Shown: positions 5,441 through 28,354, numbered from the stretch's first letter. The stretch is DNA of 64,000 bases from Burkholderiales bacterium (GCA_035649875.1 DASRIR010000337.1:16219-80218), one strand, 5' to 3'. The notes: generated by a model from the letters alone, not told the origin. Numbers and translations: made by a program.

Positions 5441-5450
5441 GGATTGGCGT

Positions 5451-5527: not shown

Positions 5528-5538
5528 AATGAAAGCAT

Positions 5539-5613: not shown

Positions 5614-5618
5614 CCGCG

Positions 5619-5654
5619 CCCCGCCGCGCGACCGATCGGCTGCGCGCGGCGGGG
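5619..5654. other. 12-bp GC hairpin immediately 5' of the tRNA-Glu gene
   Basis: CCCCGCCGCGCG-12 nt loop-CGCGCGGCGGGG. No U-run on either strand, so it does not look like a terminator. Confidence 0.6.
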
Positions 5655-5657
5655 CTT

Positions 5658-5672
5658 GCTTTGCCACATCCA
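5658..5672. repeat. 15-nt inverted-repeat arm (GCTTTGCCACATCCA), partner at 5024-5038
   Basis: Exact reverse complement of 5024-5038. Together the arms bracket the seven tRNAs His to Glu plus the GC hairpin. Confidence 0.8.
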
Positions 5673-5675
5673 AGT

Positions 5676-5709
5676 TGTAAAAGAGCAGGCGGCAGCACAT
5701 TGCTGCCGC
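5676..5709 (-). terminator. Possible weak terminator after the Leu-like tRNA
   Basis: Minus strand hairpin GCGGCAGCA-ATG-TGCTGCCGC followed by CTGCTCTTTTAC. The U-run is short and offset. Confidence 0.4.
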
Positions 5710-5718
5710 GACAAAATC

Positions 5719-5795
5719 TGGTACCCCACCCGGGATTCGAACCCGGAAGGTCGTGTTTCTGAGACACGCGCGTATGCCGATTCCGCCAGCGGGGC
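5719..5795 (-). tRNA. tRNA with anticodon CAG and a Leu-type D-arm but a short (5-nt) variable region
   Basis: GCCCCGC-TGGCGGAATCGGCATACGCG-CGTGT-CTCAGAA-ACACG-ACCTT-CCGGG-TTCGAAT-CCCGG-GTGGGGT-A-CCA, 77 nt. The D-arm is near-identical to the E. coli Leu(CAG) D-arm as I recall it, and A73 is present, but there is no long variable arm. Confidence 0.65.
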
Positions 5796-12400: not shown

Positions 12401-13179
<779 letters not shown>

Positions 13180-13194
13180 GCTACTTCGCGGCGT

Positions 13195-14175
13195 CTACTT
13201 CTTCCTCGTCTTCAGGTCGTCCGGCAGGAAGGATTCGTCGATCAGCTTCGACCAGTCCGCGTCGCCCTTCATCGCGCCGACGATCTTCTGCGCGCGGATC
13301 ATGTTGTCCATGGTGTCGATGCGGATGTCGCCCGGGCCCCAGTACGGCACGCCGCCTTTCTTCTCCGAATCGAGAAGGTTGCGCACCGTCGCCTCGGCCA
13401 CCGGCACTTCGAGCTCGTAGGCCTTGGCGATGATCGCCGCGGATTCCTTGGTGTTGGAAACCATGAACTCCACCGCCTTGCGCCGCGCGCGGATCACGCC
13501 GCGGATGAAATCGCCGCGCGTCTTCGCCGCCTCGCCGGTCGTGACGCCGACCACGTTGGAAAGCGCGGGCAGGATGTCGGGGGCGGATGCGATCAGCTTG
13601 TACTTGCCCTGGTTTTTCGACCACAACGGCTCCGCCACCGGCACTACGTCGACCCCACCGATCTCGAGCATGGTGAGCCCGGCGCCGAAGCCGCCGGTGC
13701 GCACCAGCTCCACTTCGTTCTCCTTGAGCTTCAAGCTTTCCATGATCAGGAACGCGAGCGCCTGGCTGGTCGAGCGCGGGTTGGTGTAGCCGAGCTTGCG
13801 GCCTTTCAGGTCCTTGAGCGAATTGACCGGGGACTTGGGCATCGCCACCCAGACGAACTCGGCCACGGTGTGTACGTTACCGCTGATGATCCGGAGGTCG
13901 GCGCCACCCTGCACCGCGGACACCACCGCCGATACCGCGGCCTCGCCATAGGCGAGCTTGCCGCCGAGCAGGTTGCGGATCGTGGTGCCGCCGCCGTCGG
14001 AGGTCAGGATGCCGTCCACGTCCACCTTGAACTCCTTGAAGTAGCCTTTCTCCATCGCCACGGCGAACGGCATGCCGTTCGTGGTCACGGCGTAGTTGGA
14101 TACGACGATCTGCTCGGCGCGCGCCGCGCCGTGCGCCAGGACGAGCGCGCAGGCGACGATGAATCCCTTCTTCAT
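13195..14175 (-). CDS. ABC substrate-binding protein (NMT1/SsuA-like)
   Basis: Start MKKGFIVACALVLAHGAARA (signal peptide) and PBP type-II fold features. Confidence 0.75.
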   Translation of the reverse strand: MKKGFIVACALVLAHGAARAEQIVVSNYAVTTNGMPFAVAMEKGYFKEFKVDVDGILTSDGGGTTIRNLLGGKLAYGEAAVSAVVSAVQGGADLRIISGNVHTVAEFVWVAMPKSPVNSLKDLKGRKLGYTNPRSTSQALAFLIMESLKLKENEVELVRTGGFGAGLTMLEIGGVDVVPVAEPLWSKNQGKYKLIASAPDILPALSNVVGVTTGEAAKTRGDFIRGVIRARRKAVEFMVSNTKESAAIIAKAYELEVPVAEATVRNLLDSEKKGGVPYWGPGDIRIDTMDNMIRAQKIVGAMKGDADWSKLIDESFLPDDLKTRKK

Positions 14176-14395
14176 GGGGGCCTCCTCCTCGGCCGAGTAT
14201 AGGGCAGGGAATCCGGCACTCCCAGAGTGTGCAATCCCGCAACATTGCTGCACCGCTCATCGAAGCGCTCCGTCCGCCTGTCGGCGGTGGTCGTAATTCG
14301 CTGCCCGGAGGCGTATTCGTTCCTCCCCCCTCTTGACAGGCTAGGCGCAATGTTGGGGACAAGCAGCCAATAAAGAAGCAAAGGGGGGGTATCCG

Positions 14396-14644
14396 ATGAA
14401 CCCGCTTCTCCAGGAAGTACAAGACGCAGTCAACACGCTGTTCCAGCGTTACCCGACGCTGTGCGGCTTCTCGGTGAAGGACGACCTGTCCTTCTCGAAC
14501 GTCGCCTGCCATCCGGCGCTGGCCGGCGCGGAAGCCGAGATTCTCTGCGAGGAGATCTCCGCCACGCTGCTGGAGCTGATGGAAGAGCAGCCCGAGGCGG
14601 CCGAGCTGCTGCGCGGCCGCACGGTGGCGCGCATCTTCCATTGA
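14396..14644 (+). CDS. Small protein, paralog family member P1 (82 aa)
   Basis: Shares LF.R.P.L.GF.V.D and the C-terminal LLRGRTVARIFH-stop with four other ORFs in the window. Good SD (AAGGGGGGG). Confidence 0.75.
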   Translation: MNPLLQEVQDAVNTLFQRYPTLCGFSVKDDLSFSNVACHPALAGAEAEILCEEISATLLELMEEQPEAAELLRGRTVARIFH

Positions 14645-15228
14645 AAAGGCTCGCCGCCGCAGCCTTACTTTTCGCCGCCGCCTGCACGGCGGGAGCGCAG
14701 GATCTCGATCGGCCCCTCCTCCTCGTGGCCGCACCGGATCTCCAGGGCATGTACAACCGCACCGCGCTCCTCGTCGTGCCGGCGGCCGGCGGCCAGCACT
14801 TCGGCTTCATCCTGAACCGCGCGACCGAGGTCAGGATGGGAACCCTGTTCCCCGAGCACGCGCCTTCGGCCAAGGTCGCCGAACCGGTGTTCTTCGGCGG
14901 CCCCGAGATGCTCGGCTCGATCTTCGCCATCGTGCCGCACGACCCGGGCGGGCCGGCGCTGCACCTATTCGGCGAGCTCTACGTCACCGCGAACGGCGCC
15001 GCGGTCGACCGCATCATCGAGAAGACGCCGAACGAGGCGCGCTACTTCGCCGGCTTCGTCGGCTGGGAGCGCGGCGAGCTCGAGAAAGAGATCGGCGCGG
15101 GGTTCTGGTACCTCACCGAGCCCGACGCGGCACTGCTTTTCCGCAAGGACACCGGCGGCATGTGGGAGGAGCTGGTGAAAAGGCTGCGGTCGCGCAGCGC
15201 GGCCCTGACTAGTAGCGCTGTCCTTTGA
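14641..15228 (+). CDS. YqgE/AlgH-family protein with N-terminal signal/lipobox-like extension
   Basis: TTG start overlaps the P1 stop (TTGA). LLVAAPDL...F.R..LLV....GG..GF.LN, FFGGP and GWE.GELE are YqgE/AlgH motifs. The first ATG would truncate the conserved core. Confidence 0.7.
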   Translation: MKRLAAAALLFAAACTAGAQDLDRPLLLVAAPDLQGMYNRTALLVVPAAGGQHFGFILNRATEVRMGTLFPEHAPSAKVAEPVFFGGPEMLGSIFAIVPHDPGGPALHLFGELYVTANGAAVDRIIEKTPNEARYFAGFVGWERGELEKEIGAGFWYLTEPDAALLFRKDTGGMWEELVKRLRSRSAALTSSAVL

Positions 15229-15499
15229 TCGTCCAGGGGATGCGCGGCCCGCTTTCGCCGTCCTCTTGTGGCCGCACCGTTCCTTTCTTCGGCCGGCCGG
15301 GCCGGTAGGTGACCTGGAAGATCTTCAGCGGCGGCACTTTCGGCGGACTCTCGAGGAAGCGGCAATCCGACTCGGTCGGCATGCTGAGCAGCGCGCCCAG
15401 GCGCCGGCCGCCGAGCATCACCGTGTAGCGCAGCATGTGAGCCGAGCCGCTCGCGGGCTGGGCGCGGATCTCGTACTTGCCGAGCTTGAACACCTTCAC
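15209..15499 (-). CDS. Small AT-hook-like protein, paralog of 20256-20525
   Basis: LGKYEIRAQP..GSAHMLRYTVMLGGRRLGAL.S.PTESDCRF...PPKVPPLKIF...RPGRPKKGT. GTG start with GAGGA SD chosen by alignment to the paralog; the longest ORF extends to 15610. Confidence 0.6.
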   Translation of the reverse strand: MKVFKLGKYEIRAQPASGSAHMLRYTVMLGGRRLGALLSMPTESDCRFLESPPKVPPLKIFQVTYRPGRPKKGTVRPQEDGESGPRIPWTIKGQRY

Positions 15500-15846
15500 G
15501 GTTCTTCCGTCCTCTGCAATGGAATGGGCGAAGCGCGGCGATCTGCGACGGCTGGCAGTGGCTTCGCCGTGGTGTGCGCCTGTATATCCCACATCGGCAC
15601 CGAAAGCCATCTATTTCGTGCATACTGGCCCATGCCTCTCTGGCTCACGCTTCCCGCGGTCCTGCTTCTGGGTACTTCCGGCTGGATCGCGATGCTCGAC
15701 CCGACCGGCGCGCCGGGGGCCCACTATCTGTGGTGGACCGGGACGGCGATCGCCGCGTCGCTCGTCCTGCTGCGGCTGCTGCGCGTCGCCTGACGGGCAC
15801 GCCGTTTGCTCCTTTCCTGGGAGCACTCAACGGAAAGGGGCTGACG

Positions 15847-16104
15847 ATGGAAACGCAATACGAAAAAGTACCGAGCAACGTGCAGGAAGTTCCGGGCCGT
15901 GACGAAACCATGCGCAAGGCGCGCGAGCGGCTCAACCAGACGCTGTCCGGCGTCAGCGAGCAGGCGAAGCACGCGGCGCAGTATGCCGACGAGACCGTGC
16001 ACAATAATCCCTGGACCTCGGTCGGGGTGGCTTTCGGCCTGGGTGCGATTTTCGGCGCGCTGATCGCGCTGGCGGCGAGCTCGAGCTCGCGAAGGATTTT
16101 CTAG
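15847..16104 (+). CDS. DUF883/ElaB-YqjD family membrane-anchored protein
   Basis: C-terminal HNNPWTSVGVAFGLGAIFGALIA tail anchor after a coiled-coil segment. Confidence 0.75.
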   Translation: METQYEKVPSNVQEVPGRDETMRKARERLNQTLSGVSEQAKHAAQYADETVHNNPWTSVGVAFGLGAIFGALIALAASSSSRRIF

Positions 16105-16146
16105 CCAGCGGCTAGAATCGCGTTCCTCTAATACCCGGGGAACGCG

Positions 16147-16653
16147 ATGAAAATTTCGATGTATCAAGCCAGCGCGCCGCGCTTCGCGAACGCGCTGCGC
16201 AACCTTTCGGCCATTCTCGACAAGGCGCAGGCGCACGCGGAGGCGAAGAAGATCGACGCCACGGTGCCCGCCGGCCTGCGGCTGATCGCCGACATGTTTC
16301 CGCTCGCGCGCCAGGTGCAGATCGCCTGCGACACCGCGAAAGGCGCGGTGGCGCGGCTCGCCGGCGTCGAGATCCCCAAGCACGAGGACACCGAGCACAC
16401 GATCCCCGAGCTCAAGGCGCGCATCGCGAAGACGCTCGACTTCATCGGCTCGGTGCCGGCGGCCAAGATCGACGGCTCGGAAACGCGCGAAGTGGTGATG
16501 AAAATGCGGGGCCAGGACGTGAAATTCACCGGCCTGCAGTACCTGATGGGGCACGCCTACCCGAACTTCTACTTCCACTACGCGACCGCCTACAACATCC
16601 TGCGCGCGAACGGGATCGAGCTCGGCAAGCGCGACTTCATCGGTAATCCGTAA
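16147..16653 (+). CDS. DUF1993 family protein
   Basis: MYQASAP.F...L.NLSAILDKA.AHAEAKKID and FPL.RQVQIACD..KG..ARLAG pattern typical of this family. Confidence 0.75.
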   Translation: MKISMYQASAPRFANALRNLSAILDKAQAHAEAKKIDATVPAGLRLIADMFPLARQVQIACDTAKGAVARLAGVEIPKHEDTEHTIPELKARIAKTLDFIGSVPAAKIDGSETREVVMKMRGQDVKFTGLQYLMGHAYPNFYFHYATAYNILRANGIELGKRDFIGNP

Positions 16654-16655
16654 CC

Positions 16656-16726
16656 GAATTCGGGGTCAGTGTCGCAATTCGTTTTCACGTACGTGAAAAC
16701 TGAATTGCGACACTGACCCCGAATTC
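16656..16726. repeat. 71-bp near-perfect palindrome (about 35-bp arms, one bulged T) between convergent genes
   Basis: GAATTCGGGGTCAGTGTCGCAATTC-GTTTTCACGTACGTGAAAAC-T-GAATTGCGACACTGACCCCGAATTC. Starts 3 nt after the stop at 16651-16653 and overlaps the stop codon of the minus gene at 16725. Confidence 0.9.
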
Positions 16727-17156
16727 ATGACTGCTTGAACGGCGCGCCCAGGCTTTCGCACTGGCTACGCGCGTACTGGGCGCCGACGCCGAAATCGTCC
16801 GGCCCGCCGTTGACCTGCACGATCTTCTCGTTACGGATGAACACCGTCATCGGATAGAAGCCGGCGTAGGCGCCGGAGCGGTTCTTGTCGTTCACCCAGA
16901 CGCAGGTCGCCCAGCCGTAATGCATCGGACGCAGCGCCACCGCGCGCTGGAACATCTGCTGCGGCTCGGTGCGGAACTCGACGATCGCCGCCTTGGGGTC
17001 GGTGAGCCGCACCGAGAGGTAGCTCGTGATCTCCTCCTTCCAGCGCACCGGGCGCGGGCCGTAGTTGAGCCCTTCGGTCTCCGCCTTGGTGACCGGCGCC
17101 GGGGCGCAGGCGACGAGCACAATGGGGATGATCGTGGCGGCGAGCGCTAGGCGCAT
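16725..17156 (-). CDS. Lipoprotein, function unknown
   Basis: Start MRLALAATIIPIVLVAC (lipobox LVAC) at 17156. The remainder of the 520-aa track ORF is shadow. Confidence 0.6.
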   Translation of the reverse strand: MRLALAATIIPIVLVACAPAPVTKAETEGLNYGPRPVRWKEEITSYLSVRLTDPKAAIVEFRTEPQQMFQRAVALRPMHYGWATCVWVNDKNRSGAYAGFYPMTVFIRNEKIVQVNGGPDDFGVGAQYARSQCESLGAPFKQS

Positions 17157-17186
17157 GGAGCTTCTCCCTCTGGTAAAAGGCGGATT

Positions 17187-17798
17187 ATGCAACGCTGGAT
17201 CGAGCGGCCCGAAGCGCGCTGGGCGCTGTGGGCGGGCGTCGCCGGCGCCCTCGCCACCGCCGCGCTCTCGACGCGGATGATCCTCGCGCACGGCAGCTCG
17301 GGCGCGGCGCTCGGCTTCGTGTTCTTGCCGCTCGTCGCCGCCGCGGCCGCGGTGCCGATCGGTATCTGGGGCGCGGCGCTCGGCCACGTGGTGCTGCACT
17401 TGCGCGGCCGCGCGCCCGAGCCGAAGATCGTGTTCTGGGCCGCGCTCGTCGCCGCCGCTTCGCTGCCGATCGCGGTCGGCAACGAGATCTGGCGCGGCAA
17501 CGCGCTCGAGGCCGCGGTGGCCGAGGTGCGGCAGATGAACGGATTCGACCTGGAGATGGCTTTTCAAAACTCCCAATTTCGCCGGGACAAGTACTTCCTC
17601 GGCGCGCTCGCCCAGCACCCCGCGGCCAGCGCGCACCTCCTCGAGCGCATTGCGCGCCTCGAGGACCCGGCGCTCGCCCAGCCGATGTGGTCGCTCTGGG
17701 ACGTGATGGGCGAGAACCGCCGCGGCGAACCGGTGCTCGCGCTCGCCGCGCGTCACCCCAACGCCACCGAGTCGGTCAAGCGCCGCGCGCCGCGGTAG
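17187..17798 (+). CDS. Hypothetical membrane protein
   Basis: Three to four N-terminal hydrophobic helices followed by a soluble helical C-terminus. No recognisable motif. Confidence 0.45.
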   Translation: MQRWIERPEARWALWAGVAGALATAALSTRMILAHGSSGAALGFVFLPLVAAAAAVPIGIWGAALGHVVLHLRGRAPEPKIVFWAALVAAASLPIAVGNEIWRGNALEAAVAEVRQMNGFDLEMAFQNSQFRRDKYFLGALAQHPAASAHLLERIARLEDPALAQPMWSLWDVMGENRRGEPVLALAARHPNATESVKRRAPR

Positions 17799-18346
17799 AA
17801 AAGCACGATCGCGCCGAGCTGGATCACGTGGTAGAGGTCGTTGTGGTTGAAGTGCTCGTGCAGCTTGAGCCCGCCCGCCTGCACCAGCGCCGCCGCGATC
17901 GAGACCGCGACCCCGGCGACGATCCAGCCGTTGAAGCGCCAGAGGTGCAGGCCCAGCAGGATCAGAAAAGCGATGCCGGTGTCGATCACGACGTAGATGA
18001 ACTCGTCGTGGCGCAGCATCCAGACGCAATAAACGAGGAGCTTGATGGACGCAAGGGCGATCAGCAGGTCGCGCCCCCTGCCGGAAAACGACGCCACCGC
18101 GGAGCCCGCGACCATGCCGAAGCTCGCGCCGCCCGCCGCCAGCAGCGTGGCTTTCCATAAAGCGTCGCTCTTGAGGAAGCCGTGCCAGGTTCCGCCGAGC
18201 AGCGCGGCGAGCGCAAGGCAGATGAACGCGCACGACCAGAGCTTTCTCGACTTCCCGGCGCCGCGGAAAAGCGGCAGCGCGAGCCACGCCGCGACGCCCG
18301 CCAGGAGATAGTCGGTCAGGACCGTGGTCGGTTCGGAAATTGTCAT
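17753..18346 (-). CDS. Integral membrane protein, function unknown
   Basis: Start MTISEPTTVLTDYLLAG; about six predicted TM helices. Last gene of the co-directional chain starting at kefB. Confidence 0.55.
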   Translation of the reverse strand: MTISEPTTVLTDYLLAGVAAWLALPLFRGAGKSRKLWSCAFICLALAALLGGTWHGFLKSDALWKATLLAAGGASFGMVAGSAVASFSGRGRDLLIALASIKLLVYCVWMLRHDEFIYVVIDTGIAFLILLGLHLWRFNGWIVAGVAVSIAAALVQAGGLKLHEHFNHNDLYHVIQLGAIVLFYRGARRLTDSVALG

Positions 18347-18356
18347 GTGATGCGCG

Positions 18357-18740
18357 TCAAGCCTTGAGCCGCTGCCGGTGCGACTCGCCCACCACCAAGA
18401 TGAAGGCGGCAAGCACCCAATGGAAGACGATCGGAATCGGGCGGTCCATGATCAGGACCGCGCGCAGCAGCATCGCCGCGAGGTACACGTAGCCGAAGAT
18501 GAGCCAGGGCCGGGCGAAGAAGCGCCGGGGCCCGTAGAAGTAGCCGCGCTCGCGCGTGAAGTCCACGGAGATCTTGATCATGAGCGCGACGATGAGGAGC
18601 TGCGAGGGCAGCAGGTACTCGTAGGGCAGCAGCCCCGAGTACCAAAGCTCCATCGGGGGCAGCCAGCTCACGCCGAGGAAGGCGACGAGCGCCTGCCCGG
18701 CCACGCGAGCGACGAACAGGGCCGTGAGCGCCCAGAGCAC
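18357..18740 (-). CDS. Integral membrane protein, function unknown (127 aa)
   Basis: Four hydrophobic helices. Starts 13 nt downstream of the flavoprotein stop. Confidence 0.55.
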   Translation of the reverse strand: MLWALTALFVARVAGQALVAFLGVSWLPPMELWYSGLLPYEYLLPSQLLIVALMIKISVDFTRERGYFYGPRRFFARPWLIFGYVYLAAMLLRAVLIMDRPIPIVFHWVLAAFILVVGESHRQRLKA

Positions 18741-18753
18741 GGCGCGCTCCAGG

Positions 18754-20253
18754 CTACTTCTTCTCGTACATCCTTTCGTAATGGCGGTACCACTCGCTCT
18801 GGAAGAGCTTCTGCGGGTCGTACTTGAGCTTCAGCTTGAGGAGCTCCTGCAGCTGCGGAAAGCAGGCGTCCACCTGGCGGCGGATCGCGTAGCGGTTGTA
18901 GGTCGGGAAGTAGCTTCCGCCGTACTTGAGGCCGATGTCGATCAGGCGGCGGAACACGTCGCCCGCCTTGATCAGCCCGCTCGTGGTGTGCTCGACGTGC
19001 ACGTTGAAGATCACGCACGCGTAGGGCCGGCGCGCCCAGGCGAGGAAGCTCTCGCGGTCCTGCTCGATCAGGCGGATGGTGCCGTAGATGATGTCGACCT
19101 TGTCGCGCCGCGCGTATTCGCGCACCTCGCCCATGAAGCGCTCGAGCATCTCGCGCTCGCAGTAGATCTCGGTGATCGCCTCGGTCGCGCGCACCTGCGC
19201 GCCGACGCGCTGGTCGAGCGCGCGGTGGTAGTTCTCGGGATACACGCTCATCTGGGCTTCGTCGGACCAGTAGATCTGGCCGTTGGTCGCGACGTAGCGG
19301 CCGGCGTAGCGCCGGAAGGCCTCGGCCTTGGCGTGGTGCGCGAGCGTGAGCAGCTCGACCCAGTCGCGCTCCTGCAGGTCCTTCTGGCCGCTCGGCACCG
19401 GCGTCGCCGGGTCGACCGGGCGATAGCACGAGAACACGCCGCGGCGCAGGAAGTCGTCCGAGCTCTCGTCGATCGCGTACTGGAAGTCGCCGTACAGGAA
19501 GCCGTCGTGGACGCGGTCGCCGAAGCCCTTCATCAGGCCATCGACCGAGCGCACCTCGACCACGCGCTCGAGCTTGCGCCGCTCGACCAGGCGCAGCGTC
19601 GCCGAGGTGATCAGGCCGAACAGGCCGTAGCCGCCGATCGCCAGGCGGAAGAGCTCGGCGTTCTCGGTGCGGCTGCAGTTCACCACCTCGCCCTTGGCGG
19701 TGAGCAGGCGGAACGACTCGACGTCGCCGATGAACGGCGGCATCTTCAGCCCGCGGCCGTGGATGTTGGCCGAGAGCGCGCCGCCGATGGTGAGCTTGTC
19801 GGCGCCGGTCTGCTTCTGCGCGAAGGTCCATTGCCGCTCGCGGCCCTTCTGCTGGCTCACGAGCTGCTGCAGGAGCTGCGGCCACTGGATCCCGGTCTCG
19901 ACCTCGATGTGGCCCTTCTCCAGGTCGAAGCCGAGCACGCGGTTCATGCGCCGCGTGTCGATCATCAGGCCGTCGTGCAGGAACTGCTGCCCACCCATCG
20001 CGTGGCGTGCGCCCGAGATGCAGATCGCGCGCTCTTCCTTCTGCGCGGTCTTGAGCGCGGCGCGCAGGTTGTCGAGCGTGTCGGGCTGCACGATGCGCCA
20101 GACGCGCGAGGAATTGAGCTGCGAGTGGACGTCGTTGACGAGGATTCCCGGCGGGTCCTTCTTCAGGTCTTTCTTGAGCGCCTGCGGCAGGACGCTCGAC
20201 GGCCAGGCCGCGCCGGCAAGCGTGATCCCCAGGAAGTCTCTACGGCGGAACAG
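18754..20253 (-). CDS. FAD-binding (PCMH-type) oxidoreductase with Tat signal; probable CTG start
   Basis: FAD_binding_4-like body (ISGARHAMGGQQF). In frame upstream of the first GTG (20091) lie 54 codons encoding FRRRDFLGITLAGAAWPSS and ILVNDVHSQLN. A CTG at 20253-20251 sits 8 nt after GAGGAG. Confidence 0.7.
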   Translation of the reverse strand: MFRRRDFLGITLAGAAWPSSVLPQALKKDLKKDPPGILVNDVHSQLNSSRVWRIVQPDTLDNLRAALKTAQKEERAICISGARHAMGGQQFLHDGLMIDTRRMNRVLGFDLEKGHIEVETGIQWPQLLQQLVSQQKGRERQWTFAQKQTGADKLTIGGALSANIHGRGLKMPPFIGDVESFRLLTAKGEVVNCSRTENAELFRLAIGGYGLFGLITSATLRLVERRKLERVVEVRSVDGLMKGFGDRVHDGFLYGDFQYAIDESSDDFLRRGVFSCYRPVDPATPVPSGQKDLQERDWVELLTLAHHAKAEAFRRYAGRYVATNGQIYWSDEAQMSVYPENYHRALDQRVGAQVRATEAITEIYCEREMLERFMGEVREYARRDKVDIIYGTIRLIEQDRESFLAWARRPYACVIFNVHVEHTTSGLIKAGDVFRRLIDIGLKYGGSYFPTYNRYAIRRQVDACFPQLQELLKLKLKYDPQKLFQSEWYRHYERMYEKK

Positions 20254-20255
20254 GC

Positions 20256-20525
20256 CTACAGCTCCTCGTTCCGAGTCGGGGAGGTGCCTTTCTTCGGCCG
20301 GCCGGGCCGGTTGGTGAGCGCGAAGATGCGCAGCGGCGGCACCGGCGGCGGGGCTTCCATGAAGCGGCAGTCCGACTCGGTCGGCACGCTCATCAGCGCG
20401 CCGATCTTGCGGCCGTTGAGCATCACGGTGTAGCGCAGCATGTGCGCCGAGCCGTAGAGGGGCTGCGCCACGATGTCGTACTTGCCGAGCCTGTACTGCT
20501 TGCGTTCGAGCAACGGAAGGGCCAT
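20256..20525 (-). CDS. Small AT-hook-like protein (89 aa), paralog of 15209-15499
   Basis: MALPLLERKQYRLGKYDIVAQPLYGSAHMLRYTVMLNGRKIGALMSVPTESDCRFMEAPPPVPPLRIFALTNRPGRPKKGT. Confidence 0.7.
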   Translation of the reverse strand: MALPLLERKQYRLGKYDIVAQPLYGSAHMLRYTVMLNGRKIGALMSVPTESDCRFMEAPPPVPPLRIFALTNRPGRPKKGTSPTRNEEL

Positions 20526-20527
20526 GG

Positions 20528-20836
20528 CTATTTCTTCGCCACGAACACGCTCGACAGGTCGACCTCGTCGAGCTTGACCGCGGCCTTGTTCGCCGCCTCG
20601 ATCTGCGCCTTCATGCGGTCGGTTTCCCGCGTCGCCTGCTCGAAGGCGTCGGCGAGCTTGAAGCTGAACGCGGCGAGCGCCTTGGGATCGGGCTTCTTCG
20701 CCTCCGACGAGGCGAGCGTGCCGTAGACCCGGCTCGAGAGCTGGATGAAGATTCGTTCGGCCAGGTCGACGTACGCGTCCTTGTGTGGGCTGGCTGACGG
20801 CTTCGCCGTCGGCGCTTCCTTGGCGGGTGCGCTCAT
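20528..20836 (-). CDS. Hypothetical protein (102 aa), helical, Lys/Ala-rich
   Basis: The ATG overlaps the kefB-like stop (ATGA). Its stop lies 2 nt before the next start. No recognisable motif. Confidence 0.55.
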   Translation of the reverse strand: MSAPAKEAPTAKPSASPHKDAYVDLAERIFIQLSSRVYGTLASSEAKKPDPKALAAFSFKLADAFEQATRETDRMKAQIEAANKAAVKLDEVDLSSVFVAKK

Positions 20837-22668
20837 GGTCGTTCCGGTTTGATTTCCGCAATCCTACGCTGATCTTCGCTCAGGGTGCGAGCGAGTTGGT
20901 CACGCAGCTCGTTGGATACCGTGACGTGGGCGTCGGGCCGGGTGCGGTGCACTTCGTAGAGCTTCGCCACCACCTCGACGTCGTGCTCGGCGAAGGTCTC
21001 CGCGGTGCGGCGCGCGCGCTCCGCGTCCTTGCTCGCCTGGGCCACCGCGAGCTCGCCGAGCTTGAGCGCCGAGAGCCAGGTCTCGCGCTCGATGGTCTCC
21101 ACGCCGAGGTCGCGCAGCCTGAACACGTGGCGCATGTCGTGCGCGCGCGCGATCACGCGCAGCTGGGGGAAGTGCGCGCGGGCGATGTGCGCGAGCCGGG
21201 TGGTGGCGTCGGCGTCGTCGAGCGCGATCACCAGGAAGTCCGCGCTGTCGGCGCCCGCCGCGTGCAGAAGGTCGAGGCGGGTGGCGTCGCCGTAGAACAC
21301 GCGGAAGCCGAACTTGCGCGACTGCTCGACGTGGTCGGGATCGTCGTCGAGCACCGTGGGCACGTAGCCCGCGGCGTGCAGCATGCGCGCCACCACCTGG
21401 CCGACGCGCCCGAGGCCCGCGACGATCACCTTGCCCTCCTGGGGCACGTCGGGTGCGCGCTCCTGCGCCGGCGCGGCGAAGAAGCGCGGCGCCAGGTGGT
21501 CGTGCAGCGCGAGCAGGAACGGCGTGAGCAGCATCGAGATCGCCACCGCCAGGGTGATCGCCTGCGCGACCGGGTCGGCGATGCCGCCGTGCGTCACCGC
21601 GACGCCGAGCAGCACGAAGGCGAACTCGCCGCCCTGCGCGAGCAGCAGGACGAAGAGCGCGCGCTCGGCGCGCGGGATGCGCGTGAAGTGGCCGATCAGC
21701 CAGAGCACGGCGCCCTTGAGGACGAAGAGGCCGATGATCAGCCCGAACACGAGCCACGGCGAGGACACCAGCACCGAGAAGTCCGCGCTCATGCCGACCG
21801 CAATGAAGAACAGTCCGAGCAGGAGCCCCTTGAACGGCTCGACCGCGGCCTCGATCTCGTGGCGGTATTCCGACTCGGCGAGGAGCACCCCGCCGAGGAA
21901 CGCGCCGAGCGCCATCGACATCCCGGCGTGCTCGAAGCCGAGCGCGATCACCAGCACCAGGAGCAGCGCGAATGCGGTGAAGATCTCGCGCAGCCGCGTG
22001 CGCGCGATGTGGCGGAACACCGGCCGCGCCAGGAGGCGCCCGCCGCCCAGCGTCACCACGATCACCGCCGCCGCGAGCCCGAGCTTGGGCCACGAGAAGC
22101 CGGACCCGCCTTCGCCCGCGCCGAGCAGCGGCAGGACCGCGAGCATCGGGATCACCGCGATGTCCTGGAACAGCAGCACCGCGAAGGTTCCCTGGCCGCC
22201 CTGCGTAGCGAGCGCGCCGCGCTCCGTGAGTGGGGTGAGCGCGAGCGCGGTCGAGGAGAGCGAGAGCGCCATGCCGGCGATCAGCGCGACGCGCAGGTCG
22301 AAGCCGAGCGCCCAGCCGACCCCGGCGATGAGCGCGATCGATCCCAGCACCTGCGCCAGCCCGAGGCCGAGGAGCTTGGCGCGCATGTTCCACAGGCGCT
22401 TGGGCTCGAGCTCGAGGCCGATCACGAACAGCAGCATCACCACGCCGAGCTCGGCGAACGCCCGGATATGGTCCGCGGTCCCGACCAGCTGGAAGCCCCA
22501 GGGGCCGATCGCGATCCCGGCGAGCAGGTAGCCGGCGACCGAGCCGAGCCCCAATTTGTGAGAAATCATCACCGCGGCCACCGCGGCGGCGAAATAGAGG
22601 CTCGCCTGGACTAAAAAGTCATTGCCGTGCTCCACGGGCGAAGTATATTTGCAGTGGGAGGGAACCAA
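20833..22668 (-). CDS. Glutathione-regulated K+ efflux / CPA2 antiporter (KefB/KefC-like) with RCK/TrkA-N domain
   Basis: Na_H exchanger TM core (LGLGSVAGYLLAGIAIGPWG) plus the Rossmann motif VIVAGLGRVGQ. The start may be the GTG at 22635 rather than the TTG at 22668. Confidence 0.85.
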   Translation of the reverse strand: MVPSHCKYTSPVEHGNDFLVQASLYFAAAVAAVMISHKLGLGSVAGYLLAGIAIGPWGFQLVGTADHIRAFAELGVVMLLFVIGLELEPKRLWNMRAKLLGLGLAQVLGSIALIAGVGWALGFDLRVALIAGMALSLSSTALALTPLTERGALATQGGQGTFAVLLFQDIAVIPMLAVLPLLGAGEGGSGFSWPKLGLAAAVIVVTLGGGRLLARPVFRHIARTRLREIFTAFALLLVLVIALGFEHAGMSMALGAFLGGVLLAESEYRHEIEAAVEPFKGLLLGLFFIAVGMSADFSVLVSSPWLVFGLIIGLFVLKGAVLWLIGHFTRIPRAERALFVLLLAQGGEFAFVLLGVAVTHGGIADPVAQAITLAVAISMLLTPFLLALHDHLAPRFFAAPAQERAPDVPQEGKVIVAGLGRVGQVVARMLHAAGYVPTVLDDDPDHVEQSRKFGFRVFYGDATRLDLLHAAGADSADFLVIALDDADATTRLAHIARAHFPQLRVIARAHDMRHVFRLRDLGVETIERETWLSALKLGELAVAQASKDAERARRTAETFAEHDVEVVAKLYEVHRTRPDAHVTVSNELRDQLARTLSEDQRRIAEIKPERP

Positions 22669-22670
22669 GA

Positions 22671-22964
22671 ATGAACTCGGCCGAAGCCGAGCTGCAAGGG
22701 AGCGTGGCGCGCCTCTTCGCGCGCCGGCCGGAGCTCTGGCGCTTCACGGTGCGCGACCGCACCATGCTGCCGGACAACCTCGATCCGACCGTGCTGACCG
22801 GCGAATTCTTCATCTTCGAGATCGGCCTCTCGCCGCGCCAGGGCAAGGAGCACTACAACGAGGTCTACGACGAGATCGCGCGCGCCATCACCGCCGCGGT
22901 GGCGGCGCGGCCGGAAGCACGCAAGCTCCTTCCGGGGCGCACTTTCATGAGGGCCTTGCATTAG
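22671..22964 (+). CDS. Small protein, paralog family member P2 (97 aa)
   Basis: LFARRPELWRFTVRD ... FFIFEIGLSP ... YNEVYDEIARAI ... LLPGRTFMRALH-stop. A sigma70-like TTGCCG-16-TATATT and GGGAGGGA SD lie upstream. Confidence 0.75.
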   Translation: MNSAEAELQGSVARLFARRPELWRFTVRDRTMLPDNLDPTVLTGEFFIFEIGLSPRQGKEHYNEVYDEIARAITAAVAARPEARKLLPGRTFMRALH

Positions 22965-23007
22965 AGGCATGCGGCACACGGAGTAAGCAGTGCAGTAGAC
23001 TTTCCGC

Positions 23008-23796
23008 ATGCAGGCGGCCATTCCCTACACGCTGGAAACGGGCGAGAAGCTCGTCAACGAGACCTTCGGCCCGAACAACATCCGCCGGCGCACGAGCGGC
23101 GCCCAGCAGCTTTTCCCGATGGAAGTCACCGACGGCCGGGGCCAGAAGACCTCGCTCGACGAGAACGGCTTCGTGTTCGTCGAGCACAGAACCGCAGTGC
23201 GGGACTTCTTGGCCAAGACGGAACTCGAGAACATCTATTACCCGGAAGTTGCCGCGCTGATCGCGCAGATCTCGGGCGCAAGGCGGGTGCACGTGTTCGA
23301 CCACACGCTGCGCTCGGGCGACGAAGGCGAGCGCGAGGCGAAGCTCTTGCGCGAGCCGGTGCTGTCGGCGCACAACGATTACACCGAGTGGTCGGGGCCG
23401 AACAGGGTGCGCGAGCTGCTACCGGACGAGGCCGACGGGCTCCTGAAAAAACGGTTCGCGATCATCCAGGTCTGGCGCGCGATCAACCAGCCGATCGAGT
23501 CGAATCCGCTCGCGATCGCGGACGCGAAGAGCGTCGCGCCCGAGGACCTGCTCATTGCCGAGCGCCGCTATCCGCATCGCGTCGGCCAGACCTACCGGCT
23601 GAAGCACAGCCCGCTCCACCGCTGGTTCTACTTCCCGCGCATGCGGCGCGACGAGGCGCTGGTGTTCAAGGTCTACGACTCGGAGAAGGACGGGCGCGCT
23701 CGCTTTACCCCGCACACCTCGTTCGACGACCCTTCGACCCCGCCCGGCGCGGCGCCCCGGCAAAGCATCGAGGCGCGCGCGCTGGCGTTTTTCTAG
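23008..23796 (+). CDS. CmcJ/NvfI-family oxidoreductase-like protein
   Basis: Family-typical HVFDHT.R, AHNDYT and IQVWR motifs as I recall them. Confidence 0.6.
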   Translation: MQAAIPYTLETGEKLVNETFGPNNIRRRTSGAQQLFPMEVTDGRGQKTSLDENGFVFVEHRTAVRDFLAKTELENIYYPEVAALIAQISGARRVHVFDHTLRSGDEGEREAKLLREPVLSAHNDYTEWSGPNRVRELLPDEADGLLKKRFAIIQVWRAINQPIESNPLAIADAKSVAPEDLLIAERRYPHRVGQTYRLKHSPLHRWFYFPRMRRDEALVFKVYDSEKDGRARFTPHTSFDDPSTPPGAAPRQSIEARALAFF

Positions 23797-25046
23797 AGCG
23801 TGGGTCGCTTGGGCTTGCGCGCGAAGAAGAAGAACCCGGAGCCGAGCGCGGCGAGCACCGCGATGATGGTGAAGCCGACGCGGTAGTTGCCGGTGATGTC
23901 GGCGAAGATGCCGGGAATGATCGGCCCGCCGACCTGCCCGACCACGATGATCATGAACGAGAGGCCCAGGATCATGCCGATCGCCCTGCGGCCGAAGTAG
24001 TCGGCGCGGATCGCCTGCATGAACGGCCCGCGCAGGCCCCAGGCGGTGCCGTGCAGCACCGCGAAGGCGACGACCATCAGCCAGTTGACGGCGTAGGTGA
24101 GCAGTAAGAGGCCGAGCGCATGCGCGAGCATGCACATGCCCGCGATCAACCGCTTGCGGTAGCGGTCGCCGATCCACCAGCCGAGCAGCACGCCGCCGAT
24201 CTGGCAGAAAGTGACCAGGCTGATCGCGAGCGAAGCCGCGGCGATCGAATAGCCGAGGCCTTCCTTGAGGTGCGTGATCGCGTGCACCGAGACCGCGTGC
24301 ACCACGAAGAGGGCGAAACCATGCCCGAGCGAGATCAGCCAGAAGGCCGAGGTGCGCAGCGCCTCGGCCGCGGTGAAGTCGCGGGTTCCGTCGGGGGTTT
24401 CGGCGCTGGAGCCCACGGTTTGCGTTTCCGGCGGCACGCCGTCGACGACTTCCCCGTGCTCGTGCGGGCTGTTGCGGATCACCAGGGCGAGCGGTAAACC
24501 GACGCAGATCATGAGCACGCCCGAGGCGAGCGCGGTGGGGCGCCAGCCGAAGGTGGTGAGCGAGGAGGCGACGAGGGGCACCATGATGCCGCCGAAGGCA
24601 AGGCCGATCGACATCGACGACAGCGCGCGCGCGCGCTTGCGCTCGAACCAGTGGATGAGCGCCACGTTGAGGGGGAAGAAGCCGCACAGGCTCGAGCCGA
24701 GCGCGATCACGATGAAGGCGCCGTAGAACGTGGGGAGGGATTCCACCTGCGACAGCAGGCACAGGCCCAGTCCGAAAACCACCACGCCCGAGCGCACGAA
24801 CGCCTTCGGCCCGAAGCGGTCGATCGCCCAGCCGAGCACCGGGCCGAGCAGCGCGACTTCCATCTGCTGCAGGGCGGCCGCGCCGGAGAGCGCGGTCTTG
24901 CTCCAGCCCTGCTCGTCGGCGAGCACCGCGAGGTAGGCGCCGAATGCCTGGGTGACGAGCCCCGCCTGGAGGAACTGCAGGCCAACCGCAGCGCCGACCA
25001 TGTACCAGCCGTAAAAGATCTTTCGAGGCGGATTCGCGTCGCTCAA
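23793..25046 (-). CDS. MFS transporter
   Basis: Twelve-TM profile. N-terminus ...RKIFYGWYMVGAAV is typical of the OFA-like MFS. The TTG start at 25046 was chosen; the upstream part of the track ORF looks non-coding. Confidence 0.75.
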   Translation of the reverse strand: MSDANPPRKIFYGWYMVGAAVGLQFLQAGLVTQAFGAYLAVLADEQGWSKTALSGAAALQQMEVALLGPVLGWAIDRFGPKAFVRSGVVVFGLGLCLLSQVESLPTFYGAFIVIALGSSLCGFFPLNVALIHWFERKRARALSSMSIGLAFGGIMVPLVASSLTTFGWRPTALASGVLMICVGLPLALVIRNSPHEHGEVVDGVPPETQTVGSSAETPDGTRDFTAAEALRTSAFWLISLGHGFALFVVHAVSVHAITHLKEGLGYSIAAASLAISLVTFCQIGGVLLGWWIGDRYRKRLIAGMCMLAHALGLLLLTYAVNWLMVVAFAVLHGTAWGLRGPFMQAIRADYFGRRAIGMILGLSFMIIVVGQVGGPIIPGIFADITGNYRVGFTIIAVLAALGSGFFFFARKPKRPTL

Positions 25047-25104
25047 GCACGACAGGATACCGCCCTGTATTACCCGTGGGTCCGTTCCTTGCGGTAGGCA
25101 GGGC

Positions 25105-25434
25105 ATGAAACCCGCCCAGCTCGGAACACTCAACGCGGATCTGGCCCCGATCGAAGAGGACCTGGCGCTGCGCATCGACGCGATCTTCGACCGCTGCCCG
25201 CAGCTCTTCGGCTTCACGGTGCAGGATTCCTCGGCGCTGCCCGAGGAGCTGCGTGCCATTGCGCTCGAGCGCGAGCTGGTGGTGAGCGATATCGGCGTCT
25301 ACCCGTACCTCAACGCCGACCAGTGCGAGCAGATTTACAACGAGATCGCGGTCGCGCTGCTCGACTTCATGTTCGAGCGGCCGGCTGCAAAAGACGTGCT
25401 ACGCGGGCGTACGTTCGTCCGCTCGTTGCACTAG
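25105..25434 (+). CDS. Small protein, paralog family member P3 (109 aa)
   Basis: IFDRCPQLFGFTVQD ... LVVSDIGVYP ... IYNEIAVAL ... VLRGRTFVRSLH-stop. Confidence 0.75.
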   Translation: MKPAQLGTLNADLAPIEEDLALRIDAIFDRCPQLFGFTVQDSSALPEELRAIALERELVVSDIGVYPYLNADQCEQIYNEIAVALLDFMFERPAAKDVLRGRTFVRSLH

Positions 25435-26283
25435 CGAAACACAAGCTTCGTCGTAGCGCCCCGGCCCCATCGCGCCGGGCTCGAAGATCTCGCGCTCGGC
25501 GACCCACTTGAAGGATTCTTCGAACACCTCGCGCGTGTAGGGCTCGAACACGATGCGCTCGCCCGGGCCCCAGCGCCGGGTGTCGATCTGGTCGAGGAAG
25601 CGCCGGGGAAACTCCTTCGCGTAGTGGTGCGTATAAAGCTCGGGCCGCAGGTCGATGTCGCGCTGCGCGCGGCGCAGGGCGCGGAAATACTTGCGCACGT
25701 CTTCCGGATCGGGATCGCCAGTGAGCATCGAGGCCATCATGAAGGTGGTGTCGATGATCTTGCGGAAGCCAAGCTGCTCGAGGAAATAGTAGGGCCCGCT
25801 GAACAGCGCGGCCGCCGGAACCTGGCGGTCGATCAGCTTCTCCATGCGCCCGAAGAGGATCCCGTCGGCGAAGGAGAGCTTGATGTCCTCGCGCGCCAGG
25901 TATTGCTCGAGCGCCTGGATGGTCGAGTAGTGGCTACCAGACTGGTGTCCGACCGAGATCGGCACGCCTTTCAGGTCCTTCGGCCCGCGGACCGGCGACT
26001 CGGGCGGGACGAAGACCCCGCCGGGGGAGACGGAATAGCAATCCGCGACCATCTTGCCCAGGCCCTTGGAAGCGGCCACGTTCACCGTCCAGTGGCATGC
26101 GCAGCTCACGTTTGTTTCACGTCCTTCATGAAAGCTCGTGTAGGCGCCCACCTTGTCCGGGGTGGCGTGGGTCTTGAAAACTTCGCGGAATTCGTAGTCC
26201 AGGCCTTCGGCCCTGAAGTAACCCTTCTCCTCCGCGACCCACTCGTGGAGCCGGAAATGCGGGGAAATCACGAACTTAGCCAT
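25399..26283 (-). CDS. Cytoplasmic NMT1/THI5-like (PBP-fold) protein
   Basis: Start MAKFVISPHFRLHEW, no signal peptide, PBP type-II-like body. Convergent 36-nt overlap with P3. Confidence 0.6.
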   Translation of the reverse strand: MAKFVISPHFRLHEWVAEEKGYFRAEGLDYEFREVFKTHATPDKVGAYTSFHEGRETNVSCACHWTVNVAASKGLGKMVADCYSVSPGGVFVPPESPVRGPKDLKGVPISVGHQSGSHYSTIQALEQYLAREDIKLSFADGILFGRMEKLIDRQVPAAALFSGPYYFLEQLGFRKIIDTTFMMASMLTGDPDPEDVRKYFRALRRAQRDIDLRPELYTHHYAKEFPRRFLDQIDTRRWGPGERIVFEPYTREVFEESFKWVAEREIFEPGAMGPGRYDEACVSLVQRADERTPA

Positions 26284-26454
26284 CGAGAGCCTCCTGGAAG
26301 CCCCAATCATGCCAACTATTTCGCACGGCTGACAGTTGCTCAACCCGCTGTAGTGGTCTTCGGGACAAGAATGCTGGTGACGGGAAAAGGCCTAGACCGG
26401 CCGGCCCCCGGAGGACCGACCCCCGTGAAACTTACTGGGAATAGCGTAGAAGCC

Positions 26455-26709
26455 ATGAAAACCGCGCGCCAACTGCAGGAGCAACTGGAATCGCTCTTCG
26501 CGCGCTGCCCCGACCTCTGCGGGTTCGCGGTACGCGAGGATGCGCAAGAGCTCTATGTGAGCGATATCGGCATCTCGCCGCGCGTCTCGGCCGAGCAGTA
26601 CGGCGAGATCTACGAGGAGATCGCCGAGACGCTCGGCGAGCTGATCGAGCAGGAGCCCTCGGCCAGCGAGTGGCTCCGCGGCCGCACCTTCGCCCGGGTC
26701 CTGCACTAA
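26455..26709 (+). CDS. Small protein, paralog family member P4 (84 aa)
   Basis: MKTARQLQEQLESLFARCPDLCGFAVRE ... LYVSDIGISP ... IYEEIAETL ... WLRGRTFARVLH-stop. Internal ATG of track ORF 25624-26709, whose upstream part is antisense shadow. Confidence 0.75.
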   Translation: MKTARQLQEQLESLFARCPDLCGFAVREDAQELYVSDIGISPRVSAEQYGEIYEEIAETLGELIEQEPSASEWLRGRTFARVLH

Positions 26710-26803
26710 AACCGGTTTATCCCCCCGTCTAGGGGTTCGGCTGTAGTTGTTTCAGGGATTCCCCGATTGGCCTTTTTACTACAGGCCTCTAGGCTGGGAA
26801 CCC

Positions 26804-27127
26804 ATGAAGACCGCTCTACTGTACGACAGTCTGCTCGGCCGGCTAGAGGCCGACGTCCAGGCCCGCATCCGCTCGCTTTTCGCGCGTTGCCCCTCGCTCC
26901 ACGGCTTCGCCGTCCAGGACCGCGCCTCGCTGCCGAAGGATGTCGATCCCACCCGCATTCCGGATGCCGATCTCTTCGTCACCGACATCGGCGTCTTTCC
27001 CAAGGTCGACTCGCAGTACGACGAGATCCACGACGAGATCACCATCGCGATCTCGGACCTGGTGCACGACCAGCCGCACGCCTACGACTACCTGCGCGGC
27101 AAGACTTTCGCGCGGTCGCTGCACTGA
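26804..27127 (+). CDS. Small protein, paralog family member P5 (107 aa)
   Basis: MKTALLYD...LFARCPSLHGFAVQD ... LFVTDIGVFP ... IHDEITIAI ... YLRGKTFARSLH-stop. In tandem with P4. Confidence 0.75.
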   Translation: MKTALLYDSLLGRLEADVQARIRSLFARCPSLHGFAVQDRASLPKDVDPTRIPDADLFVTDIGVFPKVDSQYDEIHDEITIAISDLVHDQPHAYDYLRGKTFARSLH

Positions 27128-27182
27128 CCGGCGAAGTCCCGCAGCAACTCCTGAGGTAACCGAACTCGAAGGGGGACCGCGA

Positions 27183-27219
27183 GCACGCGCGCCACAGCCG
27201 GGAGGGCTGTGGCGCGTGC
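27183..27219. terminator. Hairpin between convergent genes (possible bidirectional terminator)
   Basis: CGCGCCACAGCC-GGGA-GGGCTGTGGCGCG inverted repeat between the P5 stop and the GcvT-like gene stop. Confidence 0.5.
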
Positions 27220-27226
27220 GCCGCCG

Positions 27227-28354
27227 CTAGGACTTGGCGATCGCTTTCTTCGGGTCGATGAAGGGCATCGGCACCACCAGGGCGCTGCGCGCACCGCCCG
27301 GCGCTTCGATCTTCAGCTTTTTCTCCGACGCCTTTTCGATCGGCAGCATCGCGTAGCCGATGTTCTTCTTCAGGCGCGGCGAATGGACGCACGACGTCAC
27401 GAAGCCGCCGCCCTTCACCGGGTAGCGCGTCATGTTCATGTCCATCTTTGCGCCGCCGATTTCCAAGCCTATGAGTTTGCGGGAAGGACCTTCGCGGGAA
27501 ATCCTTCGGAGAGCATCCCTGCCGATGAACTCCGCCGGCTTGTCCAGGTTCACGAGGCGCTCCAGGCCGACCTCGTAGGGGTTGTTGTCGAGCGTCATGT
27601 CGATGCCGTAGTTGAGGATGCCGGCTTCGATGCGGCGGATGTCGGAGGGGCCGGTGGGCGCGATGTTGAAGCGCTTGCCCGCTTTCATCACGCGGTTCCA
27701 CAGGTCGACGCCGCGCGCCGGGTCGAGCAGATAGAGCTCGTAGCCGAGCTCGCCGGTCCATCCGGTGCGCGTGACGATCAGCGGAATGTTTCCGAGCTTG
27801 GTCTCGAAGAAATGGTAATAGCCGAGTCCGAGCACCTTTTCTCCAAACAGCATCTTCATCAAGTCGCGGGACTTCGGCCCCTGGACTTGCAGCGGCGCGA
27901 CATCGAGCTCGCGCACCTCGACGTCCAGGCCGGCGCCGCGCGCGACGCCCTTCGCCCAGAGCAGCACGTCGCTGTCGGCGCAGGCGAGCCAGAAGCGGTT
28001 TTCCTCGATACGCAGCAGCACTGGATCGTTGACGATGCCGCCGGCGTCGTCGGTGAGGAGCACGTAACGCCCTTCGCCGACGCGGCACTTGGAGAGGTCG
28101 CGCGGCGTGAGCAGCTCGGCGAGCTTGAAGCCGTCGCGCCCGGCGATCTCGACGTTGCGCTCGACCGACACGTCCCAGAGCGTGACGTCGGCGAGCAGGC
28201 GCCGGTATTCGGCTTCGAAGCCGGCGTACCGGATCGGCAACAGCATGTGGTTGTACACCGTGTAGCCGCGGCAGCCGGCGCGCTGCGTCGCCTCGAAATA
28301 GGGCGAGCGCTTGAGACGGGCACCACGTTGGATCAAGGCCGGATCGAATATCAT
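27227..28354 (-). CDS. Aminomethyltransferase-family (GcvT-like) protein
   Basis: LWDVS....EI.G.D......L..RD and the folate-dependent GcvT-fold pattern, as in demethylase-type members. Confidence 0.75.
   Translation of the reverse strand: MIFDPALIQRGARLKRSPYFEATQRAGCRGYTVYNHMLLPIRYAGFEAEYRRLLADVTLWDVSVERNVEIAGRDGFKLAELLTPRDLSKCRVGEGRYVLLTDDAGGIVNDPVLLRIEENRFWLACADSDVLLWAKGVARGAGLDVEVRELDVAPLQVQGPKSRDLMKMLFGEKVLGLGYYHFFETKLGNIPLIVTRTGWTGELGYELYLLDPARGVDLWNRVMKAGKRFNIAPTGPSDIRRIEAGILNYGIDMTLDNNPYEVGLERLVNLDKPAEFIGRDALRRISREGPSRKLIGLEIGGAKMDMNMTRYPVKGGGFVTSCVHSPRLKKNIGYAMLPIEKASEKKLKIEAPGGARSALVVPMPFIDPKKAIAKS

Follow-up and report, generated by a model that had tools for sequence, protein, structure and literature searches.

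The stretch analysed here (the window) comprises 64,000 nucleotides (nt) of DNA from a Burkholderiales bacterium (GCA_035649875.1, DASRIR010000337.1:16219-80218) and contains five small plus-strand open reading frames (ORFs), named P1 to P5 in coordinate order, which encode paralogous proteins of a previously unrecognised family. P1 (14396-14644; 82 residues, isoelectric point (pI) 4.4, GC content at third codon positions (GC3) 0.87) lies ~8 kb upstream of the other four. These make up a quartet, the first gene of which is P2 (22671-22964; 97 residues, pI 8.2, the sole basic member), followed by P3 (25105-25434; 109 residues, pI 4.5, the most conserved member), P4 (26455-26709; 84 residues, pI 4.5) and, as the last gene, P5 (26804-27127; 107 residues, pI 5.4). 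On the basis of the alignment, P1 and P4 are both classed as short-loop members.

An original prediction, made from the sequence of the window, had proposed that the five ORFs encode proteins that align along their whole length and share terminal motifs. All five ORFs are present exactly where it had placed them, and the alignment and motifs are borne out by 16 columns that are invariant across P1-P5; these include the N-terminal LF.R.P.L.GF.V and the C-terminal L.G.T..R..H, the latter with the stop codon next to it. Pairwise identities among the five proteins are 27-43%, with BLASTP E-values of 2e-7 to 3e-28, so the similarity is not due to chance. A profile made from the five sequences detects no sixth copy in the six-frame translation of the 64 kb.

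Coding character and extent of the family

P1-P5 are genuine genes, and the family is under purifying selection. GC content at third (GC3, 0.86-0.91) and second (GC2, 0.37-0.46) codon positions in P1-P5 matches that expected of genes in a genome with 67% GC. Comparison of the window genes with their closest orthologs by the Nei-Gojobori method gives ratios of nonsynonymous to synonymous substitution (dN/dS) of 0.12-0.32 for P2, 0.035-0.14 for P3, 0.09-0.2 for P4 and 0.14-0.23 for P5, i.e. purifying selection across the quartet (0.035-0.32 overall). The proposal that selection acts on a real product is in keeping with the codon-position GC values, with the existence of more than 2,400 relatives and with the low dN/dS against close orthologs.

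The family lies outside every known kind tested here, both by sequence and by structure. Searches of Pfam-A, NCBIfam, PADLOC and PHROGs returned only noise (best E-value at least 0.012, 11-14 bits, far under the cut-offs), no Pfam family was matched by more than five of the 104 members of a diverse alignment, the precomputed annotation of public contigs with newer Pfam models is blank for all family members, and the best match among PDB sequences, found with hmmsearch, has an E-value of 0.26. No curated family or solved structure matches, as the original description of the family as unrecognised implied. The earlier statement that no DNA-binding motif is visible is likewise upheld by the Pfam scans, which identify no helix-turn-helix (HTH) or other DNA-binding family in P1-P5; two of the 104 members give a weak match to HTH_32 (E=0.0012). 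In being clade-restricted, tandem-duplicated hypothetical proteins seen via comparative genomics only, P1-P5 resemble lineage-specific families of the domain-of-unknown-function (DUF) type. They differ from these, however, in that the family has no Pfam or NCBIfam model and in that its paralogs are old, fixed in number and order, and apparently individually regulated.

A profile search of a protein collection clustered at 90% identity finds 2,490 relatives at E≤1e-3, nearly all named 'hypothetical protein' and none with a Pfam domain, and an exhaustive search of representatives at 50% identity gives 379 clusters, almost all of them single-domain proteins of ~60-150 residues. Two long repetitive proteins (P0155 and P0215) were rejected as relatives, since their scores are summed chance matches to the repeat FPRNPTL.AFAVS. 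The exact P1 protein occurs, with the same synteny, on at least 22 soil-metagenome contigs. When one genome per species was scanned, 51 loci were obtained, all from metagenome-assembled genomes of uncultured Burkholderiales/Betaproteobacteria together with one single-cell genome, SCGC AG-212-J23, the name of which serves as the taxon label for a common soil group. Two of the 51 loci carry the label 'uncultured Enterobacteriaceae', which, judging from synteny, we take to be a misassignment. The plasmid and phage collections contain no match to the family; across the collections and genomes searched, it was seen in a single uncultured lineage of soil Burkholderiales and nowhere else.

In other genomes each paralog has orthologs of its own, at identities down to 45-60%, which bears out the view that the divergence of the five is ancient. 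The best explanation is an ancient origin of the family through tandem duplication within an uncultured clade of soil Burkholderiales, its members having formed separate orthologous groups since.

Gene order and neighbouring genes

Every locus was scanned with the family profile, each match being assigned to the nearest window paralog. P2, P3, P4 and P5 are four orthologous groups that, across ~50 genomes, lie on one strand in constant order, with P2 orthologs (48-88% identical) always 5' of P3 and P5 orthologs (64-90% identical) always 3' of P4. In 13 genomes P2-P5 are contiguous, arrayed in tandem with 45-250 nt between successive genes and no intervening transporter gene; in other genomes an oppositely oriented NMT1-like gene of 1 kb, or a segment of 3-6 kb, lies between P3 and P4. 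P2 and P3 are split by a block of ~2.1 kb, containing YDMC-family and MFS genes, only in the closest relatives of the window. Both this MFS/YDMC block and the NMT1-like gene that separates P3 from P4 are insertions specific to particular lineages. Five genomes (L020, L021, L051, L053 and L057) have lost P2, with KefB abutting P3 there, and quartets persist in more distant relatives. At least three lineages have P1-type genes ~7-8 kb upstream of the quartet, including those of loci L059 and L030 (~7 kb).

As to the block itself, it occupies 23008-25259 in the window, the YDMC-family gene encoding 262 residues (PF27522 in newer Pfam). In other lineages the YDMC-family and MFS genes are located upstream of KefB, which points to local transposition.

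The original prediction had drawn attention to a repeated head-to-head position of the five genes next to transport genes. In the window the individual pairs are largely as described. P1 is divergent from the gene for an ATP-binding cassette (ABC) transporter binding protein, which is of the NMT1 type; P2 is divergent from KefB, the start codons being 2 nt apart when the longest KefB ORF is taken and 35 nt apart when the start used in relatives is taken; and P4 is divergent from the NMT1-like gene, with P5 following it in tandem after a gap of 94 nt. P3 is indeed divergent from the MFS gene, but the 58 nt given for their separation is not a fixed value, varying from ~58 to 103 nt with the MFS start chosen. 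The NMT1-like gene (25399-26343) is also convergent with P3, their 3' ends overlapping by 36 nt (25399-25434), and such an overlap, of 9-36 nt, recurs in relatives.

As a trait of the family, however, the head-to-head position does not hold, being a product of rearrangements in this genome, with flanks that vary by lineage. The gene upstream of P2 can be KefB, an MFS gene, one for a cyclic nucleoside monophosphate (cNMP)-binding protein or one for a dehydrogenase. Downstream of P5 there is, depending on the lineage, a gene for GCV_T, a Vgb_lyase-like protein, TctBA, a Ser/Thr kinase with a cNMP domain, or a GTPase. The neighbours of P1-type genes also differ, the one in L059 being Pirin and not a binding-protein gene, and neither P3 nor P4 has any divergent partner in the 13 genomes with a contiguous array. 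No divergent pairing with a regulated gene is conserved across the genomes.

Elements upstream of the individual genes

Judged from sequence conservation among orthologs, each of P2-P5 has a conserved upstream element of its own. In the case of P2, a consensus scan gives a putative sigma70-like promoter, TTGCCG-16-TATATT (22622-22649, plus strand), and the orthologs share a conserved GAAGTATA(G/T)T box followed by a G-rich ribosome-binding site of the GGGAGG type.

Upstream of P3 there is a sigma54-like -24/-12 motif, GGGTCCGTTCCTTGCG (25078-25093, plus strand), positionally conserved and terminating 12 nt ahead of the ATG. Each of the 36 distinct sequences upstream of P3 contains the pattern GG(C/T)NCG-N4-TTGCG; in 22 the TTGC ends 12 nt from the ATG, and in a further 13 the distance is 11-15 nt. 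Sequence further upstream of the motif is not conserved among P3 orthologs. The motif has the GG-N10-GC geometry of a sigma54 promoter (consensus TGGCACG-N4-TTGCW), and from a promoter so placed, transcription would begin at the AUG or no more than ~2 nt from it, so giving a leaderless or near-leaderless transcript. A canonical sigma54 promoter, GGCACGccgtTTGCT (15796-15809, plus strand), is located upstream of the DUF883_C gene (ATG at 15847) and, as a positive control, indicates that the clade uses this class of promoter. The DUF883_C promoter (GGCACG-N4-TTGCT) occurs at the same position in loci L059, L001 and L005, where it is associated with a Shine-Dalgarno leader of ~25 nt.

P4 is preceded by a -10-type TAnnnT box, TAGCGT (26442-26447, plus strand), 7 nt before its ATG (26455). 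A -10 box next to an ORF can lead to leaderless expression (PMC12340547), and leaderless genes have a requirement for AUG (PMC3616915). Leaderless candidates were defined by a TAnnnT -10 hexamer 6-7 nt before the ATG with no Shine-Dalgarno sequence, and P4 has this arrangement. Among 44 distinct P4 orthologs, 36 have a TAnnnT box 6-7 nt ahead of an in-frame ATG, compared with one or two of 29-39 sequences for P2 and P3. The position of the box suggests that the P4 mRNA is leaderless.

The spacer between P4 and P5 contains a conserved non-coding element (26728-26785, plus strand), consisting of CTAGGGGTT-N4-CTGTAGT, a small palindrome (TCAGGGATTCCCCGA) and then ACTACAG, which occurs once in the window. 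Its core of ~45 nt is found in all lineages as CTAGGGGTT-N4-CTGT(A/C)GT, the small palindrome and then (G/T)AT, with 13 invariant columns in an alignment of 39 distinct orthologous spacers. A two-helix RNA model of the core has 76.7% of cells paired, compared with 38-50% in slid controls, with weak covariation; for the P5-proximal leader, RNAalifold gives only an invariant TGTAG/CTACA stem with no covariation. Since covariation is weak or absent, no RNA motif is claimed for the spacer. The element could represent either an RNA leader or a promoter combined with a DNA operator; a MerR-type arrangement, with an operator between -35 and -10, is possible.

Other readings of this region were considered and rejected. 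The spacing of the element, assessed by eye, does not fit sigma28 or extracytoplasmic function (ECF) promoters, and sigma54-like matches upstream of P5 are coding sequence of the P4 C terminus (FAR.LH). In several lineages, sequences read by eye contain terminator-like hairpins with T-runs just after P4. Between the convergent P5 and GCV_T genes there is a GC-rich hairpin (27188-27216), which resembles a bidirectional terminator and is a candidate for one; an Rfam search of 13000-28000 gave nothing beyond a weak tfoR-like match that covers only this hairpin.

Predicted fold and possible functions

AlphaFold2, supplied with an alignment of 104 sequences, predicts a confident fold for both P3 (predicted local distance difference test score 82.7, predicted template modelling score 0.71) and P4 (90.8 and 0.79, respectively). 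The two models have a common α-β-β-α-α-β topology, in which a long helix at the N terminus leads into a β-hairpin, followed by two helices (the first long, the second short) and a C-terminal strand. With a match defined as a Foldseek E-value <0.001 and a template modelling (TM) score >0.5, no structure in the PDB matches (best E-values 1.1 for P3 and 0.42 for P4, TM ≤0.5), and the best E-value in the BFVD viral structure library is 0.72. Judged against PDB and BFVD structures, there is thus a possibility that the predicted fold is new.

Comparison with known small α/β proteins is informative as to both likenesses and differences. The Roadblock/LC7 proteins (MglB, LAMTOR2-5/MP1-p14) are, like P1-P5, of ~100 residues, start α-β-β-α and occur as several paralogs, heterodimer pairing being a feature of the Roadblock group; they are also the top, albeit non-significant, Foldseek matches for the P3 model (TM 0.36-0.41, probability ≤0.2). 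The Roadblock sheet, however, is five-stranded and lies between helices, in an α-β-β-α-β-β-β fold, whereas the P3 and P4 models are three-stranded; the matches are absent with the better P4 model, there is no match to Pfam Roadblock (PF03259), and no partner GTPase is consistently near the family loci. Membership of Roadblock/LC7 was rejected on the strand number, the low Foldseek probability and the lack of a PF03259 match.

The type II KH/BolA-like topology is also α-β-β-α-α-β, and the order and size of its elements are like those in the P3 and P4 models. By contrast with type II KH domains, however, P1-P5 have no GXXG loop between the consecutive helices, where the family instead has a conserved Pro, and no KH or BolA structure was retrieved by Foldseek, nor was there a Pfam match to either. 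Ferredoxin-like proteins, including permutants of ribosomal S6 and the Dabb/SP1 proteins, share with the family a two-layer α/β sandwich of ~100 residues, and S6 permutants and SP1 are weak Foldseek matches (E ≥1.6, TM ≤0.4) with no sequence similarity. Compared with the ferredoxin-like β-α-β-β-α-β order, the first strand is missing in P1-P5.

The strongest conservation in the family falls in two regions. The first is the α1-β1 junction (F28, R30, P32, L34, G36 and F37, in P3 numbering), and the second is the Arg-rich C-terminal strand (P93...L99-R-G-R-T-F-x-R-x-L-H109). Four Arg residues (R30, R100, R102 and R106 in P3) are conserved within otherwise acidic proteins, four of the five having a pI of 4.4-5.4 and P2 a pI of 8.2. 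The terminal His is ~80% conserved across the family; the Cys of an RCP motif is present in P3, P4 and P5, absent from P1 and P2, and ~40% conserved family-wide. From this pattern we infer that the α1-β1 junction and the Arg-rich C-terminal strand may form one site for a partner protein or an anionic ligand.

On balance we tentatively favour, as the leading candidate though one that is far from secure, a reading in which P1-P5 are isoforms of a small binding/adaptor module, each under regulation of its own, and not DNA-binding regulators. The proteins would be small (82-109 residues), cytoplasmic, mostly acidic and of a compact α1-β1-β2-α2-α3-β3 fold, acting as stand-alone modules that bind a partner protein or anionic ligand through one conserved site. 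Their expression would differ gene by gene: P2 from a sigma70-type promoter with a normal leader, P3 from a sigma54-type -24/-12 promoter giving an mRNA that starts at or next to the AUG, P4 as a leaderless mRNA from a -10 box abutting the AUG, and P5 under the control of the conserved leader or operator that precedes it. Even so, certain paralogs could pair as hetero-oligomers. It is the differing promoter-like elements, together with the loss of P2 in some genomes and the tolerated insertions, that favour independently regulated isoforms over an obligate four-subunit complex. The terminator-like hairpins after P4 and the 45-250 nt that separate genes of the contiguous arrays likewise speak for independent regulation.

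Several points weigh against the isoform reading. The copy of the sigma54-like motif in the window (25079-25092) has a mismatch and, taken alone, is not statistically unusual in GC-rich DNA, so that the sigma54 argument for P3 rests on positional conservation. No GAFTGA signature of an enhancer-binding protein was found in the window or in the loci scanned for it, and rpoN is not in the window. Both the sigma54 and the leaderless readings come from motif position and not from mapped transcription starts; a search for sequencing run SRR3954470, as a source of expression evidence, found nothing. The proposed binding site is derived from sequence conservation alone, and a hetero-oligomer would account just as well for the fixed gene order and for P3, P4 and P5 always occurring together.

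A hetero-oligomer is the next most probable reading, and a real if unproven contender. It holds that the paralogs are subunits, e.g. of P2/P3 and P4/P5 heterodimers, forming a scaffold or regulatory particle in a manner like Roadblock/LC7 pairing. It accounts well for the strict P2-P3-P4-P5 order in every carrying locus (~50 genomes), for the invariable co-occurrence of P3, P4 and P5, for the retention of quartets even in the most distant relatives, and for the presence of one basic member (P2) among acidic ones. Adjacent genes also pair a shorter with a longer product (P2, 97 residues, with P3, 109; P4, 84 residues, with P5, 107), P4 being alone within the quartet in having no insertion in the β1-β2 loop, and the top, weak Foldseek matches of P3 are MP1/p14 and Roadblock proteins. 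The dispensability of P2 in five genomes is, however, difficult to accommodate, as is the toleration of 1-6 kb insertions between members; the distinct promoter-like elements of each gene and the terminator-like hairpins after P4 argue against stoichiometric co-expression. Conserved order is, moreover, also the default result of tandem duplication in syntenic genomes, and the Roadblock similarity is, as described above, non-significant and gone with the better P4 model.

Less likely is a role for the proteins as binders of a metal, cofactor or small molecule, with the Cys, the C-terminal His or the Arg cluster providing the ligands, and with enzyme-like or sensor functions and paralog-specific ligands; this proposal overlaps with the favoured isoform reading. 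The Arg cluster (R30, R100, R102 and R106 in P3) within acidic proteins, the conserved terminal His and the RCP Cys of P3, P4 and P5 are consistent with it. On the other side, the Cys is missing in P1 and P2 and conserved in only ~40% of the family, no known ligand-binding fold was matched, and no pathway genes are consistently linked to the loci. It is likewise rather improbable, in our view, that the quartet and P1 together constitute the subunits of a small-protein assembly of new fold, belonging to an abundant uncultured clade of soil betaproteobacteria and expressed from unusual promoters one by one, including a sigma54-type leaderless one.

The suggestion in the original prediction that P1-P5 are local transcription regulators of the divergent transport genes (ABC binding protein, KefB, MFS, NMT1-like) now appears very unlikely. 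In its favour are the head-to-head arrangement seen in the window, the divergent position of KefB, which closer relatives retain with respect to P2 (or to P3 in genomes that have lost P2), and the conserved palindromic or repeated DNA of the spacers. The intergenic motifs differ between paralogs, however, with no one shared operator, and the partners are not conserved across lineages, 13 genomes having the array uninterrupted. Since the neighbours are variable, four of the five proteins are acidic and no DNA-binding domain is matched, the local-regulator idea is not supported. An array of immunity or antitoxin-like proteins directed against a polymorphic toxin, which the small, acidic, α/β and tandemly duplicated character of the family might suggest, is the least credible of the readings, in that no toxin gene is adjacent in any locus examined, there is no match in PADLOC or in the plasmid and phage collections, and copy number and order are fixed with strong purifying selection on orthologs, whereas immunity arrays turn over quickly.

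If correct, the present analysis brings to light a protein family not described before, perhaps with a new small α/β fold as well, from a lineage of SCGC-AG-212-J23-like Burkholderiales that is frequent in soil metagenomes and has no cultured member. The locus would provide a tidy example of old tandem paralogs held in fixed order, each with a different promoter architecture, and a -24/-12 promoter abutting a start codon would be an uncommon route to a leaderless mRNA. The family is one among many lineage-specific families without an assigned role, and its practical significance is modest.

Two further features of the window may be recorded. A second uncharacterised pair of paralogs is encoded on the minus strand at 15209-15499 and 20256-20525, the products (96 and 89 residues, respectively) being 67% identical, sharing SAHMLRYTVML.GR..GAL.S.PTESDCRF.E.PP.VPPL.IF..T.RPGRPKKG and having no Pfam match; in L059 a homolog of this pair directly adjoins the P1-type gene. 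Ten tRNA genes (Ile, Met, His, Ile, Phe, Val, Lys, Pro, Glu and Leu) are clustered on the minus strand within ~1 kb at 4756-5795.

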